This document shows positions 1 to 10,773 of a stretch of DNA of 64,000 bases, in pieces; within the stretch, counting starts at the first letter, position 1, and every line of letters starts with the position of its first letter. Made by a program: the position numbers and the translations under genes. The notes under the pieces are model-generated. The model saw only the letters and a program-made list of their open reading frames with translations, was not told the origin of the DNA and made no database searches. The DNA comes from Candidatus Woesebacteria bacterium (GTDB lineage: Bacteria; Patescibacteriota; Microgenomatia; UBA8517), in NCBI GenBank assembly GCA_016926185.1, contig JAFGPD010000010.1:1444-65443 (forward strand), written 5' to 3'.

Positions 1-79
1 ATCGGTACTGTTTTCACGGACTTCACCGCAAAGTACCAAAATTGTTGCGGCAGGGCAATTTTTGAGCATATAATAAACT

Positions 80-712
80 ATGGATGCAACCGAAAATACG
101 TCTGATGCTTCTGAGGATTTCAGTGTTGCCAAAAGCGAAAAAGCAAAAAGCCAGCCGCGTTTCCACGGAAAGTTTTTCAAAGCCGCATCACCATCCGATA
201 AGGGAAAGAAGGCCGATAAGCCCGGATTGGTCGTTAATTTTACTGAGAACAAAGCGAGTCCTACTTTGACCGGCGATGATGCGCCGCTTGTTGATGTTAA
301 GGTAACAAACCCCGTGACCTATCTGAAAAAGTGGTGGAAAAAGATCATCGGTAACGAAGGGATCATGTTGAAATTTTCCCTGAAAATAAAACCTCTCACG
401 GCTTTTCTTCTGGTTGCTTTTGTTGTGTCCGGCGGAATAACAATAAATCTTTTAAATAGACTCCGGGATAAAAGCTCTGTTGCCCAATATATTCCTGCTT
501 TCGGATATGCTGAGCCCGTCGAGCGTGCATTCAGCGGCCGGCTGGAATCGGACGGGAAAGGTAACTATTTCGTTATTACTGCAACTGAAGTGATAAGGGT
601 TCAGAGCAATTTGGATCTTGAGCCATTTATGGGTGAAAATGTTTTGGTTAGCGGTTCATATAGTGATGCTGTTAAAACATTGAGTGTAACCCGGATCAAA
701 AAATTATTATAA
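80..712 (+). CDS. Hypothetical membrane-anchored protein with one central TM segment
   Basis: 210-aa ORF with Lys-rich N-terminus and a hydrophobic stretch LTAFLLVAFVVSGGITINLL; no recognisable catalytic motifs. Confidence 0.4.
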   Translation: MDATENTSDASEDFSVAKSEKAKSQPRFHGKFFKAASPSDKGKKADKPGLVVNFTENKASPTLTGDDAPLVDVKVTNPVTYLKKWWKKIIGNEGIMLKFSLKIKPLTAFLLVAFVVSGGITINLLNRLRDKSSVAQYIPAFGYAEPVERAFSGRLESDGKGNYFVITATEVIRVQSNLDLEPFMGENVLVSGSYSDAVKTLSVTRIKKLL

Positions 713-1339: not shown

Positions 1340-1436
1340 ACTGTAACTTTTTAAATAAATTGCCTTCGGCTTCGCCTTCGTAATTTTTATATCTTTTACT
1401 ACTGTTTTCCATTTGTTTATTTTTTTAAACGCTGTT

Positions 1437-1470
1437 AATATTCTCACATTCTTGAGAAAGTGAGAATATT
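1437..1470. promoter_or_regulatory. Perfect 11-bp inverted repeat (AATATTCTCAC-N12-GTGAGAATATT), candidate ArsR autoregulatory operator
   Basis: Palindrome read directly; ends 16 nt before the ArsR-family gene ATG at 1487. Confidence 0.5.
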
Positions 1471-1486
1471 AGGATAAAGTGAATGT

Positions 1487-1753
1487 ATGAATACCAAACG
1501 ACTTCAAAAGATTGTAAAAGGTTTTTCGAATCATAGAAGAATTCAAATTATGGAACTTTTGGAAACTTATCCTGATTTATCTTTGTCTGACATTGCAAGC
1601 AGAACTAAGATTAATTTAAAAACAGCAGGTGAACACACAAGAAGACTTGATGCATCTGGTTTAATAGAAAAAAATTACAGGGGAAGAGATGTGATACATT
1701 CACTAACAATTTTAGGCAAGAACATTCTTACGTTCTTAAGAAAGTTAGAATGA
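1487..1753 (+). CDS. ArsR/SmtB-family winged-helix transcriptional regulator
   Basis: 88 aa; NHRRIQIMELLETYPDLSLSDIASRT matches the ArsR HTH signature. Confidence 0.7.
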   Translation: MNTKRLQKIVKGFSNHRRIQIMELLETYPDLSLSDIASRTKINLKTAGEHTRRLDASGLIEKNYRGRDVIHSLTILGKNILTFLRKLE

Positions 1754-1786
1754 TTTGGAATCTCTGAATTTGACCCATTTTAAATA

Positions 1787-1815
1787 TTGACGCTTTTTAT
1801 TTCACGCGGTTTAAT
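1787..1815 (+). promoter_or_regulatory. Conserved promoter copy 1 (TTGACG-N17-TTTAAT) abutting the ATG at 1822
   Basis: TATTGACGCTTTTTATTTCACGCGGTTTAAT; near-identical copies at 6154-6184 and 6521-6551. Confidence 0.45.
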
Positions 1816-1821
1816 GGAGAC

Positions 1822-2121
1822 ATGAGTGACACCAATAAATTGTTTCAAAAAATTGTGAATGGCCAGAGTGCCATGAAGCAAGCAATCCTAAAAGAAGTAA
1901 AAAAGGTAGATAGTAAACTGAGTGGCAGGATGGATACTCTTGAACAGAAACTTGGCAAACTTGATAAAAAAATTGATAAAGGATTCAAGGAAGTTAATAA
2001 CCGATTGGATAAGCAGGGAAAATCTTTAGCTTATCTGGAAGATGATGCTCCAACGGTTGAGGAATTTGATAAGCTGGAAGAAAGAGTTACCGAGATTGAG
2101 GATAAAGTGCTTCACGCTTGA
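1822..2121 (+). CDS. Small coiled-coil protein, paralog A (unknown function)
   Basis: 99 aa, heptad-rich and charged, no TM; paralog of 6191-6469 at the DNA level, including a ~57-nt near-identical 3' stretch. Confidence 0.55.
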   Translation: MSDTNKLFQKIVNGQSAMKQAILKEVKKVDSKLSGRMDTLEQKLGKLDKKIDKGFKEVNNRLDKQGKSLAYLEDDAPTVEEFDKLEERVTEIEDKVLHA

Positions 2122-2152
2122 TTTGACATAAATTGCCTTTGCACCCAATTTT

Positions 2153-3601
2153 TTAATGGGTAATTATATCTTTTAACACTTTATTGAGCTTATTTCCATC
2201 CCACAATTCAACATTATTTGAAGATGCCAATTGTCTTGCACTTTTGGTAAATTTAGAGGTTGTGATGACCATAGCTCTGTCACATTTATAATGCTTTGTT
2301 GCTGCAACAGCTTCTTGAATTGCCTTATTGGTAACTGGCTTAGAGTATCTTTTTGCTTGTACCGCGATTTTTTCTCCTCCCTTTTTTATGATCAGATCAG
2401 CACCCTGGTCACCCGAAACAGGTGTTTTTACTACCAAGTGTCCAAGTTTTTTGAATAAATCTTGTAAAAGATCTTCGAATTCAATACCACTCAGATCATT
2501 TATTTTTCTACTAGAAAATTGGTTGGCAGAGGAACTTTTTCCCATTTTTAGTTCATTCTCGAAATTTTCAATCTCTTTTTGTTCTTCTTTTCTTTTTATT
2601 AAATCAATGATCTCTTCTTCCGGCAGGTCTTCGGTAGTAATATCCAGCTCTATAAATAATCGATTTAAAGTATAAGAAAATACCTCGTTGAAGTCCGTTT
2701 CGTACTCTCTGAGTGTTGGTATGGTGTCTTGGGTTTTCATTGCCGATAAACATGCTACAAAAGAAGTAACTACATCGTCTTTGGTAATAACATAACTTTC
2801 TGGTTCGTTAGATTTAGACTGTTTTAAATGAATAAATGTTGCTTCCCTGAGAGATCTGAATAAAGCTTCTTTCTGCGGACCCAGATTTATTGCTCTCAAT
2901 TTCTTGTGTTTATTCAGAAGCAGATCAGTAAGTTCCTCGTAATTTAAGCTGATGTCATTCTTTTCAAATATTGCCAACAGTTTTGGATAATCACTAAATA
3001 TGGTCAGCATCGATTCGAGCATGTCTTTGAATTGGCTATCCGGAGAGTCTACTTCCGGAAAACTCTGTTCTATTTCGATAATTTTATTACTGATAGTCAT
3101 TTTTATATTATCAATATCATTTAACCTTATCGCATTGAGAATAAATGGTGCTTTAGGAATAATGGCAAGTGAGGCAAAGTGTGCATTCCCAACTCTTTCG
3201 ATAAAAGATTTAAGAAAGTCTGTTTCAAGTTTTGCGATCTTCTCTTCCAGTTGTGTTATACGCAGTTTTTTTTCTTGTTCATTCTTTTTTATTTCATTTT
3301 TGATCTTTTCATAATTTTCTAAAGCAGAACTTTCTGAATCTTCTATGGAGATCTCTATACCATATTCACTTAAGAGCCTTTGGTTTAAAAGCGTAAAGGT
3401 GGACAACAGATCTTCTTCGGATGTTTCTTGATCCACTTCATCAATTAGTGTACGTATCAAAGCAAGTGTGATTTCATCCTGGGTTATCTCATAAAGATCA
3501 AGACTGCTTAGCCGGCTTTCTACTTTCGGTTTGACAATGTCTAGTAAATTCTCAAGGTGTTCAAGTGCTTTTTGTATTGCCATATCACGTTGGTTTGACA
3601 T
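2153..3601 (-). CDS. Mrr-like type IV restriction endonuclease catalytic domain fused to a ~350-aa N-terminal domain of unknown function
   Basis: C-terminal GADLIIKKGGEKIAVQAKRYSKP...VITTSKFTKSA...VELWDG matches the Mrr_cat PD-(D/E)xK-like core; N-terminal part is coiled-coil-rich with no recognised domain. Confidence 0.6.
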   Translation of the reverse strand: MSNQRDMAIQKALEHLENLLDIVKPKVESRLSSLDLYEITQDEITLALIRTLIDEVDQETSEEDLLSTFTLLNQRLLSEYGIEISIEDSESSALENYEKIKNEIKKNEQEKKLRITQLEEKIAKLETDFLKSFIERVGNAHFASLAIIPKAPFILNAIRLNDIDNIKMTISNKIIEIEQSFPEVDSPDSQFKDMLESMLTIFSDYPKLLAIFEKNDISLNYEELTDLLLNKHKKLRAINLGPQKEALFRSLREATFIHLKQSKSNEPESYVITKDDVVTSFVACLSAMKTQDTIPTLREYETDFNEVFSYTLNRLFIELDITTEDLPEEEIIDLIKRKEEQKEIENFENELKMGKSSSANQFSSRKINDLSGIEFEDLLQDLFKKLGHLVVKTPVSGDQGADLIIKKGGEKIAVQAKRYSKPVTNKAIQEAVAATKHYKCDRAMVITTSKFTKSARQLASSNNVELWDGNKLNKVLKDIITH

Positions 3602-3691
3602 TGCCTTATTTTAGCAAATAGGAGTAAATAAAAATGGAGAATCTTACGGTATATGATCAAAATAAATATTACTCGAAACCAACCTACACAT

Positions 3692-3720
3692 TTGACCCTA
3701 TAGTGGATAAGGGTATATAA
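3692..3720 (+). promoter_or_regulatory. TTGACC-N16/17-TATATA promoter box upstream of a 17-codon ORF and the GmrSD-like gene
   Basis: CATTTGACCCTATAGTGGATAAGGGTATATAA; same motif family as 1018, 6779, 7556 and 10738. Confidence 0.4.
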
Positions 3721-3825
3721 TTTACCCATATTCATGGCAAAAAAGAACACTTCTGGTAGAGAGAATCTAGAGATATTTGCATAGATTGCAAAAGATGTTA
3801 GAAATATGTGAGAATACAGAAGAAA

Positions 3826-5562
3826 ATGGAAATTATTACAGATAAGAAAAAACTTGTTGATCTGGTAACAGGTGCAAGAAAAGGAAAAGTTGTTTTGCCT
3901 CAATTTCAAAGATCATTTGTCTGGTCTTATGTAGATGTTGTTGATTTATTGGTTTCAATTTTTAATGGTTATTATGTAGGAAGCTTTTTAACTTTGAAGT
4001 GTGACAGTGAGAATGTACCCTTTGACTTTCGTACTATCGAGGGAGTTAATAAACAAAATGAAGATCTTAATCCAGAGGTGATGATACTGGATGGACAACA
4101 AAGGATTACTACACTTCATTATGTATTGTATGCGCCGGAAGAAATTACACTAAAGTACGCGAAATATCCTTATAGATTTTTTCTGAAACTTGATAGTTTG
4201 GTTAATGGTGATTTTGATAATGCAATTTATGGTATTAGATCAGACCAGTCAGAGAAATATATGTCACCCGAGTGGCAGTTCGAGAATAAAACCATTCCAT
4301 TCACAACACTTCAGGACTTTCAATCTTGGGATTCTTGGCTTGATAGTTACCAAGATTGGCTGCGCTCAATAGATGAAGAACAGTACGAAAATTATGTTAC
4401 CGCAGAGAGAGCAGACTGGAAGCAATCAATAAATGTATTTTTCGACATGGTTATACCAATAATCGAGATACCGAAAGTCAAAAGTGATGACGAAGACGGC
4501 GTAGCGGAAGTGTGCGCTATCTTTGAAAAAATTAACACAAAAGGTGTGAAATTATCGGTATTTGATTTGCTTACTGCCCGTCTTTTTAAATACAAAATTG
4601 ACCTGCATAAGTTATGGGAGGAAACACTAGAAACTTATAATTTGATAGATGATTTTTCGGAGGGGGAAAGTAACCCATATGGTATTTTTATTTTGAGAAT
4701 TATAGCGCTCATTAGAGGAGTCGATGTTAAAAGTAAAAATCTGATAAATTTGAAGCCAAATAACTTTGAGAATGATTGGGCGAACGCGTCAAAATATTTA
4801 CACAAAGCACTAAAAAGATTGATATCAACTAACGACGACGGTTTCGGCGTTTTTGATAAAAAATGGATGCCATATCCACCACTTCTCCCTGTATTATCTT
4901 CAGTTTTGTACCTTATCGATAAAAATAATTATAATAATTCCGCCTATAAAGCAATTAAAAAGTGGTATTGGGGATCTGTATTTGGCGAGAGATATCAAAG
5001 CGCTGTTGAAAGCAAGACAACATCGGATTTTAGAGAGATATCTCGCTACCTATCTGGTGAAGAAGTAAGCATTAAACTGTTTACTGAAATAGATGCAAAT
5101 ATAACTCTTAACGAACTATATGAAGTGAAGAGTGTCAACAGGATCAATTCAATTTATAAAGGAGTGATGAACTTATTAGCAATTAACCAAGCAAGAGATT
5201 TCCTGTTGCATGATAGTATTGAATTTCATGAACTTGATGATCACCACATTTTCCCGAAAGCATATTTGGCCAAAATTAAAGATGAGGAAGATCAGGTAAA
5301 GTATAAAGATAATTTGATAAATACAATCGTGAATAAAACCCTGATAAGTTATAGTACAAATAGAAAAATAAGTAAAAAGAAACCATCCGATTATGTAAAG
5401 GATAATAATTTAATTGTTCAGGCTTCTGTTAAAAGTATTTTGAAACGTCACTTTATCAATCAGGAAGCGTACGAGGCTATGTGTATGAATGATTATGAAA
5501 AATTTGTTAATGAGAGGAGTAACGTGTTAGTTAAAAAGATTAAGTCGCTTCTCCAAATTTGA
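3826..5562 (+). CDS. GmrSD-like type IV restriction enzyme (DUF262 ParB-like nuclease N-domain + DUF1524 HNH-like C-domain)
   Basis: LPQFQRSFVW and DGQQRITT (DUF262 signatures) near the N-terminus; HELDDHHIFPKAYL near the C-terminus (DUF1524-like); first in-frame ATG at 3826, although the ORF opens at a GTG at 3808. Confidence 0.75.
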   Translation: MEIITDKKKLVDLVTGARKGKVVLPQFQRSFVWSYVDVVDLLVSIFNGYYVGSFLTLKCDSENVPFDFRTIEGVNKQNEDLNPEVMILDGQQRITTLHYVLYAPEEITLKYAKYPYRFFLKLDSLVNGDFDNAIYGIRSDQSEKYMSPEWQFENKTIPFTTLQDFQSWDSWLDSYQDWLRSIDEEQYENYVTAERADWKQSINVFFDMVIPIIEIPKVKSDDEDGVAEVCAIFEKINTKGVKLSVFDLLTARLFKYKIDLHKLWEETLETYNLIDDFSEGESNPYGIFILRIIALIRGVDVKSKNLINLKPNNFENDWANASKYLHKALKRLISTNDDGFGVFDKKWMPYPPLLPVLSSVLYLIDKNNYNNSAYKAIKKWYWGSVFGERYQSAVESKTTSDFREISRYLSGEEVSIKLFTEIDANITLNELYEVKSVNRINSIYKGVMNLLAINQARDFLLHDSIEFHELDDHHIFPKAYLAKIKDEEDQVKYKDNLINTIVNKTLISYSTNRKISKKKPSDYVKDNNLIVQASVKSILKRHFINQEAYEAMCMNDYEKFVNERSNVLVKKIKSLLQI

Positions 5563-5619
5563 TCCTTTACCTTTTCTTCTATTTAGTTTCTATTTTATGC
5601 ATGCTATTCTTAGCCACCG

Positions 5620-6102
5620 ATGCAGAGAGATTTGATCTACAAGATTGCAAAGAATGAATTTATATTAGGAGACGAGTCTTTGCATGGAGAAGAACACTGG
5701 AGTAGAGTGGAGAAAATTGGTATATATTTGTCTGAGTTGACCGGTGCGGATGTTGATGTGGTAAGGATATTCGCCTACTTACATGATTGTAAAAGAGAAA
5801 ACGAAATGGAGGATCCCGGGCACGGGGAAAGAGCTGCTGAACTAGTCAAGAAATTGTCCGCGGAAGGTGTTTTGCAGCTAGGTGAGAAGAGTCTGTCGGA
5901 ACTTATTTATGCTTGTTATCATCACAATAAAAAGAGTAAATCTTCTGAGAATATAAATATATTGACTTGTTGGGATAGTGACGCCTTAGATTTGTGGAGA
6001 ATTGATATTGTTCCCGACCCTAATTGGCTAAATACGAAAGAAGCCAGAAGCAGAAAATTAATTAGCTTTTCCTATAAATTATTTGAAAAGTATAAAAAGT
6101 AA
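5620..6102 (+). CDS. Small HD-domain phosphohydrolase
   Basis: HGEEHWSRV ... YLHDCKRE ... DPGHGERAAELV gives an H..HD..H..D arrangement. Confidence 0.5.
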   Translation: MQRDLIYKIAKNEFILGDESLHGEEHWSRVEKIGIYLSELTGADVDVVRIFAYLHDCKRENEMEDPGHGERAAELVKKLSAEGVLQLGEKSLSELIYACYHHNKKSKSSENINILTCWDSDALDLWRIDIVPDPNWLNTKEARSRKLISFSYKLFEKYKK

Positions 6103-6155
6103 GACCCTAATAGTAAGTATGATGTGTATTAACATCTGAATTGACTCTTTATATA

Positions 6156-6184
6156 TTGACGCTTTTTATTTCACGCGGTTTAAT
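6156..6184 (+). promoter_or_regulatory. Conserved promoter copy 2 (TTGACG-N17-TTTAAT) 6 nt before the ATG at 6191
   Basis: Near-identical to 1787-1815. Confidence 0.45.
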
Positions 6185-6190
6185 AAGGAT

Positions 6191-6469
6191 ATGGATGATG
6201 TAAAGAAAATGTTTCAAAAAATTGTGAATGGCCAGAGCGCCATGAAACAAGAGATACTTAAAGGAATTAAAAAAGTAGAGGATAAACTAACAAGCAGAAT
6301 AGACGGACTTGAAAAGAAAACTGAAAAAGGATTCAAAGAAGTTAATAGCCGTTTAGATAAACAAGGAAAATCCTTAGCTTATCTGGAGGATGATGCTCCA
6401 ACGGTTGAGGAATTTGATAAGCTGGAAAAAAGAGTTGCCAAGATTGAGCAAAAAGTGCTTCACGCTTGA
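6191..6469 (+). CDS. Small coiled-coil protein, paralog B
   Basis: 92 aa; MFQKIVNGQSAMKQ...LAYLEDDAPTVEEFDKLE...KVLHA shared with paralog A. Confidence 0.55.
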   Translation: MDDVKKMFQKIVNGQSAMKQEILKGIKKVEDKLTSRIDGLEKKTEKGFKEVNSRLDKQGKSLAYLEDDAPTVEEFDKLEKRVAKIEQKVLHA

Positions 6470-6522
6470 TTTAACATAAATTGCCTTCGGTGAAAATGGA
6501 TATAATTTGACCTTTTTAAATA

Positions 6523-6551
6523 TTGACGCTTACTATTTCATGCGGTTTAAT
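6523..6551 (+). promoter_or_regulatory. Conserved promoter copy 3 (TTGACG-N17-TTTAAT) before the ATG at 6558
   Basis: TATTGACGCTTACTATTTCATGCGGTTTAAT, a diverged copy of the 1787 and 6156 element. Confidence 0.4.
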
Positions 6552-6557
6552 AGGGAT

Positions 6558-6767
6558 ATGGCAGATAAATTCCTCACTGAAGAAGATATAGATCTTTTGG
6601 AATCAAGACTAAAAGAAGTTTTTGTGACAAAAGAAGACTTCACGGAATATAAAAGTGAACTCTTTGGTAAGTTGGACGAAATAATCAAAAATACCCGTGA
6701 TACTAATGATGAAGTTGAACTTGTTGAAAATAGAATTACCACAATTGAGACAAAGTTAGCTTCATAA
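6558..6767 (+). CDS. Small coiled-coil protein sharing the promoter of the paralogs but not their sequence
   Basis: 69 aa from the ATG at 6558 (MADKFLTEEDIDLLESRLKE...); the annotated ORF start at 6507 would lie inside the promoter box. Confidence 0.4.
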   Translation: MADKFLTEEDIDLLESRLKEVFVTKEDFTEYKSELFGKLDEIIKNTRDTNDEVELVENRITTIETKLAS

Positions 6768-6778
6768 ATTTTCCCAAT

Positions 6779-6807
6779 TTGACCCCATAATGTGTTGGAT
6801 GTAATAT
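6779..6807 (+). promoter_or_regulatory. TTGACC-N17-TAATAT promoter 7 nt upstream of the ATG at 6815
   Basis: CAATTTGACCCCATAATGTGTTGGATGTAATAT. Confidence 0.4.
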
Positions 6808-6814
6808 TGGGCTG

Positions 6815-7529: not shown

Positions 7530-7555
7530 ACAACTGAATTAACTTTCCTTCCAAT

Positions 7556-7584
7556 TTGACCCCATAGTCTTATCTAAGTATAAT
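7556..7584 (+). promoter_or_regulatory. TTGACC-N17-TATAAT promoter 10 nt upstream of the ATG at 7595
   Basis: CAATTTGACCCCATAGTCTTATCTAAGTATAAT. Confidence 0.45.
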
Positions 7585-7594
7585 ATCCTATATT

Positions 7595-8260: not shown

Positions 8261-8356
8261 TAAAAAGACTTACACATCCAGATTATTGAAATAAATTGTC
8301 TTCGAGTTCCTGACTTTTTAATTTGACCACTGTATCTAAAGTGTGACAAGATATAG

Positions 8357-10705: not shown

Positions 10706-10737
10706 AGTGTGACATTGTACTTTTTTGTTCTTCTAGT

Positions 10738-10766
10738 TTGACCCTATAATATATTTGAGTTAAAAT
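10738..10766 (+). promoter_or_regulatory. TTGACC-N17-TAAAAT promoter 7 nt upstream of the ATG at 10774
   Basis: Near-identical to the 1018-1046 box. Confidence 0.45.
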
Positions 10767-10773
10767 ACTTGTA

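Follow-up and report, generated by a model that had tools for sequence, protein, structure and literature searches.

The window analysed here is a stretch of 64,000 nucleotides (nt), or 64 kb, from a 67-kb contig of a Candidatus Woesebacteria bacterium metagenome-assembled genome (MAG). Near its start it carries three small genes for coiled-coil proteins, called cc1, cc2 and cc3 below, all of which are on record in that genome. Each of them is preceded by a copy of a 31-nt element that has the form of a promoter and ends close to the start codon. The element proves to be a real, conserved promoter cassette of an ordinary mechanistic type, and it marks a small, regulon-like set of genes. We describe the element, its conservation in related genomes and its placement, and then consider what may read it.

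The promoter copies and their genes

The 31-mer TATTGACGCTTTTTATTTCACGCGGTTTAAT occurs at two sites without mismatch and at a third with three mismatches, always on the forward strand (Table 1). It had 0 matches in 100 dinucleotide-preserving shuffles. The -35 hexamer TTGACG matches TTGACA at five of six positions in all three copies. The -10 hexamer TTTAAT likewise matches TATAAT at five of six; the final T is kept, and T replaces A at position 2. The spacer between the two hexamers is exactly 17 nt in every instance, and exactly 6 nt separate TTTAAT from the ATG in the window copies. These six bases are purine-rich (GGAGAC, AAGGAT and AGGGAT). The similarity of the three copies exceeds the 31 nt, forming a 55-nt family at 1776-1830, 6145-6199 and 6512-6566. 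A preliminary description of this DNA had placed the element at these three sites and had given it this geometry; the sites were recovered, and the geometry is exact ahead of the start codons at 1822, 6191 and 6558. Its count of three copies is right for the sites but not for independent events, as copies 1 and 2 stem from one gene duplication.

The proteins encoded downstream belong to two families. The family of cc1 and cc2 has 79 detectable members, and all the named ones come from Microgenomates (Woesebacteria, Shapirobacteria and Daviesbacteria). The cc3 family has 12 members. BLASTP detected no similarity between cc3 and cc1. A profile-profile comparison of cc1 with cc3 matched the C-terminal 52 columns with a probability of 88.5% (E = 2.7e-6), so that the two families may be very old paralogues, although scores of this kind are inflated by coiled-coil composition. 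The AlphaFold2 model of cc1 (pLDDT 85.7) consists of a helix from residue 3 to 75, a kink at DAP and a second helix from 79 to 98, and a Foldseek search of the PDB with this model returned no match. When cc1, cc2, cc3 and members of their families were compared with Pfam, only sub-threshold matches to coiled-coil entries were obtained (P10, phasin, HSBP1, PspAA and DUF1664 among them). There is no sign of a phage origin for cc1, because a search against viral contigs found no homologue.

Table 1. Features of the window, with element instances from related contigs
Feature	Position	Strand	Description
Element copy 1	1785-1815	+	-35 TTGACG 1787-1792; 17-nt spacer; -10 TTTAAT 1810-1815; discriminator GGAGAC 1816-1821; ATG 1822
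Element copy 2	6154-6184	+	Same sequence as copy 1; -35 TTGACG 6156-6161; -10 TTTAAT 6179-6184; ATG 6191
Element copy 3	6521-6551	+	Three mismatches; -35 TTGACG 6523-6528; -10 TTTAAT 6546-6551; ATG 6558
cc1	1822-2121	+	99-aa coiled-coil protein, JXA63_00805
cc2	6191-6469	+	92 aa, paralogue of cc1 at 73% identity, JXA63_00825
cc3	6558-6767	+	69-aa coiled-coil protein of the second family, JXA63_00830
L031 instance			cc1-type, 76% protein identity; TTGACGCATCATATTTCACGAGGTTTAATAGAGATATG
L032 instance			61% identity, GTG start; TTGACTGCTGTTATTTCACGAGGTTTAATAGGGATGTG
L038 instance			cc3-type, 80% protein identity; TTGACATGAAATATTTCACGAGGTTTAATAGGAATATG
Weaker instances			L001, L039 and L036 (in L036 before a distant cc3-type gene)
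Upstream TTGACC box, copy 1	1770-1775	+	AATTTGACC; begins 17 nt before the first base of the -35; lacks a suitably spaced -10 partner
Upstream TTGACT box, copy 2	6141-6146	+
Upstream TTGACC box, copy 3	6507-6512	+
arsR-like gene	1487-1753	+	88-aa ArsR/MarR-like winged-helix protein; Pfam HTH_24, HTH_5, MarR; no cysteine
Palindrome O1	1436-1471	.	28-nt core ATTCTCACATTCTTGAGAAAGTGAGAAT at 1440-1467; overlaps -35 and spacer of the arsR-like promoter
Palindrome O2	1723-1752	.	28-nt core at 1724-1751; nearly the same sequence as O1; within the last arsR-like codons (ILTFLRKLE)
Left copy of ~360-nt direct repeat	1763-2141	+	Promoter, cc1 and 3' motif ATAAATTGCCTT
Right copy of ~360-nt direct repeat	6135-6487	+	Promoter, cc2 and 3' flank
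Mrr_cat restriction endonuclease	2153-3601	-	Pfam
GmrSD-type enzyme (DUF262/DUF1524)	3826-5562		Pfam
HD-domain protein	5620-6102		Pfam
Sites of the second promoter family	1015-1048, 3690-3721, 6776-6809, 7553-7586, 10735-10768		See text

Conservation in related genomes

Six other contigs from Microgenomates carry the element ahead of orthologues, and both gene families are represented among them. Identity between instances in the core (-37 to -1) is 65-89%, whereas random 37-mers reach 27 +/- 8%, and the flanking DNA from -120 to -55 falls to the level of random sequence. The alignment of eight sequences has no insertion or deletion from the -10 hexamer to the start codon. Its invariant positions are TTGAC (which is constant in nine instances), T..TCA at about -22 to -18, GTTTAAT and the last two bases (TG) of the start codon. 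The distal part of the spacer varies freely (GCTTTTT, GCTTACT, GCATCAT, TGCTGTT or ATGAAAT). The proximal core, CACGCGG or CATGCGG, had been described as conserved; this does not hold for the orthologous promoters, where CACGCGG reads CACGAGG, CATGAAG, CATTTGG or CACAGTG and nothing but TCA(Y) and the G ahead of TTTAAT stays constant. The window copies share GACGC and a C at -15 that are absent from the orthologous promoters, which suggests that copies within this genome may have been homogenised to some extent or may have co-evolved with a factor.

The element is confined to these genes in the Microgenomates DNA searched. A position weight matrix scan of the window yielded no copy beyond the three. 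A relaxed pattern run over 172 kb of Microgenomates DNA matched only before cc1- and cc3-type genes. In the GTDB representative genomes, the exact pattern TTGAC-N9-TTTCAYGCGGTTTAAT had a single match, in a Hespellia MAG, which we take as chance. The source genome or its close kin are evidently not among the GTDB representatives. The strict-pattern scan of JGI metagenome contigs gave 21 matches. Two of them look like chance, and the other 19 form one unrelated, highly conserved promoter family, in which TTGACCTTGTYAGGTTTCATGCGGTTTAAT is followed by AAGGAG and ATG; it occurs in JGI contigs L011-L030 (44-49% GC) and also in IMG/VR viral contigs L044-L051. As a relative of the element, this freshwater and viral family was rejected: it shares 16 nt with copy 3, which is probably a product of the search pattern.

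The surroundings of the genes differ between genomes. The cc1-type gene of L031 stands some 320 nt ahead of a homologue of the window's open reading frame (ORF) at 80-712 (window 1-110 compared with L031 780-910). In the window itself, that ORF and cc1 are separated by the arsR-like gene and three more small genes, and gene order here is thus fluid.

Placement at the start codon

The gap of 6 nt between the -10 hexamer and the start codon is exact in nine of nine independent instances across the two gene families. Four of four distant cc1 homologues (L004, L007, L034 and L036) have an unrelated promoter sequence, yet TAnnnT lies exactly 6 nt before their ATG; in L040 the gap is 9 nt. Such a fixed distance speaks for leaderless transcripts, because a leadered mRNA would not constrain it. 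A pyrimidine stands at -1 before an A or G at +1 in eight of the nine instances. The start codon is ATG in eight and GTG, at the same position, in one (L032).

The same arrangement is common in other genes of the lineage. With crude ORF starts, -10-like hexamers are most frequent at 6-7 nt before the start, where 20 of 74 window genes have one, and a Shine-Dalgarno (SD)-like core is found in 6 of 74. In related loci (L001, L004, L007, L034, L036 and L040), TAnnnT is positioned exactly 6 nt before the start in 17 of 62 genes, and the SD-like core is present in 2 of 62. G is depleted upstream of the window starts, with a frequency of 5-23% across -14 to -1 and at most 14% from -13 to -5. The element copies themselves lack an SD sequence at a functional distance, their sole purine tract ending 1-2 nt from the ATG. 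This is too close for SD pairing.

The layout also agrees with what is known of mapped start sites. In 49 bacteria, the dominant arrangement consists of a -10 hexamer, a 5-bp discriminator and a Y-1 R+1 Y+2 'start' element, and discriminators in Terrabacteria are AG- or AT-rich (PMC12641261). The sequence RGRGA-Y-ATG of the element fits exactly this combination of discriminator and start element, and the A of the ATG is the expected start.

Leaderless initiation of the cc genes is very likely from this comparison, and we conclude that leaderless placement would be the default of the lineage rather than a peculiarity of these genes. The preliminary description had proposed a leaderless start for the small coiled-coil genes. 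The comparison bears out the layout, through the 6-nt gap and the pyrimidine at -1, and the start site so predicted agrees with the proposal; the layout is shared with many other genes. A literature search for work linking leaderless mRNA or SD usage to Patescibacteria, the Candidate Phyla Radiation (CPR), Microgenomates, Woesebacteria and others found nothing.

The element is thus read here as a clade-specific core promoter fused to the start codon, which would produce leaderless mRNA and head two small coiled-coil families as a small co-expressed set; we regard this as probable. In such a promoter, 17 nt of spacer lie between the -35 TTGAC and the -10 TTTAAT, and a purine-rich discriminator of 5 nt leads on to the pyrimidine at -1. 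RNA polymerase would begin at the first base of the start codon, A or G, which would leave the mRNA without a leader. As the element heads the two families in a subgroup of Woesebacteria and in related Microgenomates, the genes would make up a regulon-like group. In the window, the promoter-plus-gene unit of cc1 and cc2 would have been duplicated and would now flank a 4-kb block, with cc3 carrying the version of its own family.

Several points weigh against this interpretation. The start site at the ATG is deduced from sequence. Longer read-through or leadered transcripts may coexist with leaderless ones, given the TTGACC boxes upstream and the lack of predicted intrinsic terminators between the genes. 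The hexamer (GGAGAC, AAGGAT or AGGGAT) might also be taken for an SD sequence at very close spacing. A consensus promoter scan, which needs an A at position 2 of the -10, does not list the element. The searches covered contigs of related DNA and one contig of the source genome, and the GTDB and JGI scans used a strict GCGG pattern that would miss GAGG variants.

Recognition of the promoter

The hexamer TTTAAT is the most unusual part of the element. An A at the second -10 position is near-universal in sigma-70 promoters. Other window promoters keep it (TATAAT, TAAAAT or TAATAT), whereas TTTAAT is the -10 sequence in all 9-10 instances. We infer that this hexamer, together with the conserved TCAY at about -20 to -17 and the G at -13, reflects either intrinsic tuning of the promoter or a trans-acting factor.

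In the latter case, TTTAAT, TCAY and G-13 would be read by a sigma factor of an alternative or specialised kind, or else by an activator or repressor distinct from the ArsR-like protein, and the genes would form a switchable regulon, perhaps of the stress type. The constancy of the non-consensus -10, the conservation of the proximal spacer beside a free distal spacer, and the restriction of the element to two gene families are all in favour of a dedicated factor. No candidate has been identified, however, and a TTGAC -35 followed by 17 nt of spacer is the standard housekeeping combination, which, to our knowledge, is unlike known alternative-sigma promoters. We also know of no fit to the spacing or sequence of the element among the consensus sites of CtsR, CRP/FNR, sigma-B, sigma-54 and RpoH. 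Moreover, spacer sequence alone can shift promoter strength up to 600-fold (PMC12641261). A dedicated factor is not required, because spacer and discriminator composition can tune strength hundreds of fold without one (PMC12641261). We consider such a factor rather doubtful; it would refine the proposal of a clade-specific core promoter and does not exclude it. In a broader form, the TTTAAT without A-11, the TCAY, the G-13 and the tandem TTGAC box would together be the code of either a specialised sigma factor or the cysteine-free ArsR-like protein, and the coiled-coil regulon would be switchable. We hold this form to be possible, although not probable.

The arsR-like gene lies immediately upstream of cc1. 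Its promoter, TTGAGA-17-TAAAGT-6-ATG, also has the 6-nt gap. The 17-nt arms of the palindrome O1 are 94% complementary. Its sequence recurs unchanged in L032 (2540-2567) and almost unchanged in L001, so the palindrome is conserved in three genomes. O2 is situated about 85 nt upstream of the cc1 start. In L001 there are three palindrome copies (3593-3620, 3880-3907 and 4373-4400), the third of which follows the cc gene. A 102-nt direct repeat in L001 (3526-3627 and 4306-4407) encloses the arsR-cc pair in the manner of a cassette. O1 is the probable operator of the ArsR-like protein.

The preliminary description had suggested that the spacer core of the 31-nt element could be an operator, for example of the adjacent ArsR-type protein. 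In the window, L001 and L032, the arsR-like gene does adjoin a cc gene, and GTGAAAT, the reverse complement of ATTTCAC in the element, resembles the outer half-site GTGAGAAT of the palindrome bar one extra base. But the palindrome ATTCTCACATTCTTGAGAAAGTGAGAAT is a different and strongly symmetric sequence. With up to 3 mismatches, its pattern occurs in the window only at 1440-1467 and 1724-1751, and none lies near copies 2 and 3. The dyad of the element, ATTTCAC-N3-GTTTAAT, reaches a symmetry of just 5/7 in the window, falling to 3/7 in L001 and L039, the CACGCGG sequence varies between instances, and the instances in L038 and L036 have no ArsR neighbour. When the match lists of ArsR and cc proteins were crossed for co-location, only two already known cases emerged. 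The spacer core is therefore not supported as an ArsR-type operator, and we judge that role unlikely. A functional link between the ArsR-like protein and the cc genes is possible, as their adjacency in three loci suggests; if it is real, O2 would be a more likely site than the spacer core.

Upstream transcription and duplication

A second TTGACC or TTGACT box is found 15-17 nt ahead of the -35 in each window copy. With L031 and L032 included the distance is 15-18 nt, and in L001, L036 and L038 the box stands farther upstream, at 36-65 nt. As the -35 of a second promoter, this box was rejected: the only -10 partners are TACTAT in copy 3 and a weak one in L031, and the pairing is not conserved. 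A minus-strand promoter, GTGAAA-17-TAAAAT (1805-1777), was also rejected, since it is not conserved in other copies or in orthologues.

The cc genes might instead be expressed from leadered transcripts that begin at an upstream promoter, either at a AATTTGACC-type box or by read-through. In this case, the element would be part of a 5' untranslated region (5'-UTR), and its purine-rich end would be a ribosome-binding site. All three copies have the upstream box, which pairs as TTGACC-18-TACTAT in copy 3, and a full upstream promoter of this class is present in L036. GGAG, AAGGA or AGGGA immediately precedes the ATG, and the lack of predicted terminators would permit read-through. On the other side, the box lacks a conserved -10 partner and lies anywhere from 15 to 65 nt away from the element, the purine tract ends within 1-2 nt of the ATG, and hardly any SD motifs occur across the genome. 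Leadered transcripts also give no account of the fixed 6-nt gap across unrelated promoter sequences. Nor do the element regions share a stable RNA fold: the z-scores were 0.1 to 1.0, with one at -1.27, and the fold differed in each sequence. A structured RNA element in the 5'-UTR is not supported, on this ground and because Rfam gave no match in the window, L031 and L032. Taken as a whole, we find a leadered origin decidedly unlikely.

The two copies of the ~360-nt direct repeat align continuously over promoter, coding sequence (CDS) and 3' flank, in two segments of 75% and 90% identity with a 21-nt indel in the CDS. The perfect 31-mer in copies 1 and 2 is by itself no proof of selection, because the CDS of cc1 and cc2 holds other perfect runs of 29-40 nt. 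It is nevertheless very improbable that the repeats are a mere trace of recent segmental duplication with no selection of their own, a view already contradicted by copy 3, whose core is 84-89% identical to copies 1 and 2 while the CDS behind it is at random level (48-51%, gapped, against 44% for random sequence), and by the recurrence of the element before orthologues in six other contigs whose flanking intergenic DNA cannot be aligned.

Other features of the window

The two repeat copies bracket a 4-kb block at 2153-6102 with genes for an Mrr_cat restriction endonuclease, a GmrSD-type enzyme and an HD-domain protein, which looks like a defence island. The layout of the repeats would permit gain or loss of this block through recombination between the cc1 and cc2 repeats. 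In a strain variant, L042, where cc3 is 100% identical, the contig ends within the repeat, 133 nt upstream of cc3. Inside the block, a strong promoter at 3692-3721 is followed, 13 nt on, by an ORF of 16 codons (MAKKNTSGRENLEIFA; window 3735-3785) ahead of the GmrSD gene. The start of the GmrSD gene (ATG 3826 or GTG 3808) has no nearby -10 box.

A motif of the form ATAAATTG(C/T)CTT(C/T)G is found at 1355-1368, 2128-2141, 6476-6489 and 8291-8304, always on the forward strand, and at about 1378 and 2458 in L032. It lies 5-30 nt after the stop codons of several small genes and has six matches at up to 2 mismatches, against 0.96 expected. In L032, the motif ends a repeated non-coding element of about 95 nt. 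It was rejected as a classic terminator, having neither a hairpin nor a T-run.

A second promoter family, AATTTGACCC(C/T)ATA(A/G)T...TA(A/T)AAT, combines TTGACC with TATAAT or TAAAAT at 17-18 nt. Its members are near-identical and strong and stand before small hypothetical genes. They cluster in the first 11 kb of the window, a region that resembles a variable island made up of single-gene units.

Comparison with known systems

The leaderless genes of Actinobacteria and Deinococcus are the closest parallel for the placement of the element. There, too, the -10 hexamer ends 6-7 nt before an ATG or GTG start, SD sequences are missing, a large share of the genes is affected, and GTG is tolerated at the 5' end, as in L032 here. 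The leaderless transcriptome of Mycobacterium tuberculosis was reportedly described by Cortes et al. in 2013. In contrast to these systems, the present genome belongs to the CPR and Microgenomates, the start site is a predicted one, and the -10 is TTTAAT rather than TANNNT.

With the canonical sigma-70 promoter, the element has in common the TTGAC, the 17-nt spacer, the 6 nt from -10 to the predicted +1 and the AG-rich discriminator seen in Terrabacteria (PMC12641261). It differs in having T at position 2 of the -10, TCA(Y) as an invariant part of the proximal spacer and another TTGAC box upstream. Unlike ordinary housekeeping promoters, it is conserved across genomes as a whole unit.

Two regulated systems can also be compared. 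The radiation/desiccation response motif of Deinococcus is a 17-bp palindrome bound by the repressor DdrO. Like the element, it is a conserved sequence over the core promoters of a small linked gene set in a genome rich in leaderless genes, but it is a palindrome with a known repressor, and the element is not palindromic. The inverted repeat O1, which covers the -35 and spacer of the arsR-like gene itself, has the classic autorepression layout of ArsR/SmtB operators. This fit holds for O1 and O2 and not for the 31-nt element, and a cysteine-free protein is not a typical thiolate metal sensor.

Implications for the lineage

A promoter of the sigma-70 type that gives leaderless mRNA is a well-known mechanism. 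The CPR, or Patescibacteria, make up a large uncultured share of the bacterial tree, and a literature search on CPR promoters, translation-initiation signals and regulons found no paper. The locus described here provides a concrete, testable case, in which a promoter conserved as a unit goes with two families of small coiled-coil proteins that look abundant. If a dedicated factor does read the element, its regulon would be one that is apparently undescribed, in an uncultured CPR lineage running largely on leaderless mRNAs. If metatranscriptome 5' ends confirm the predicted start, the element would become a handle for co-regulated genes in Woesebacteria. Such a confirmation would also support leaderless initiation as the main mode of the lineage and would bear on the annotation of gene starts in the CPR.

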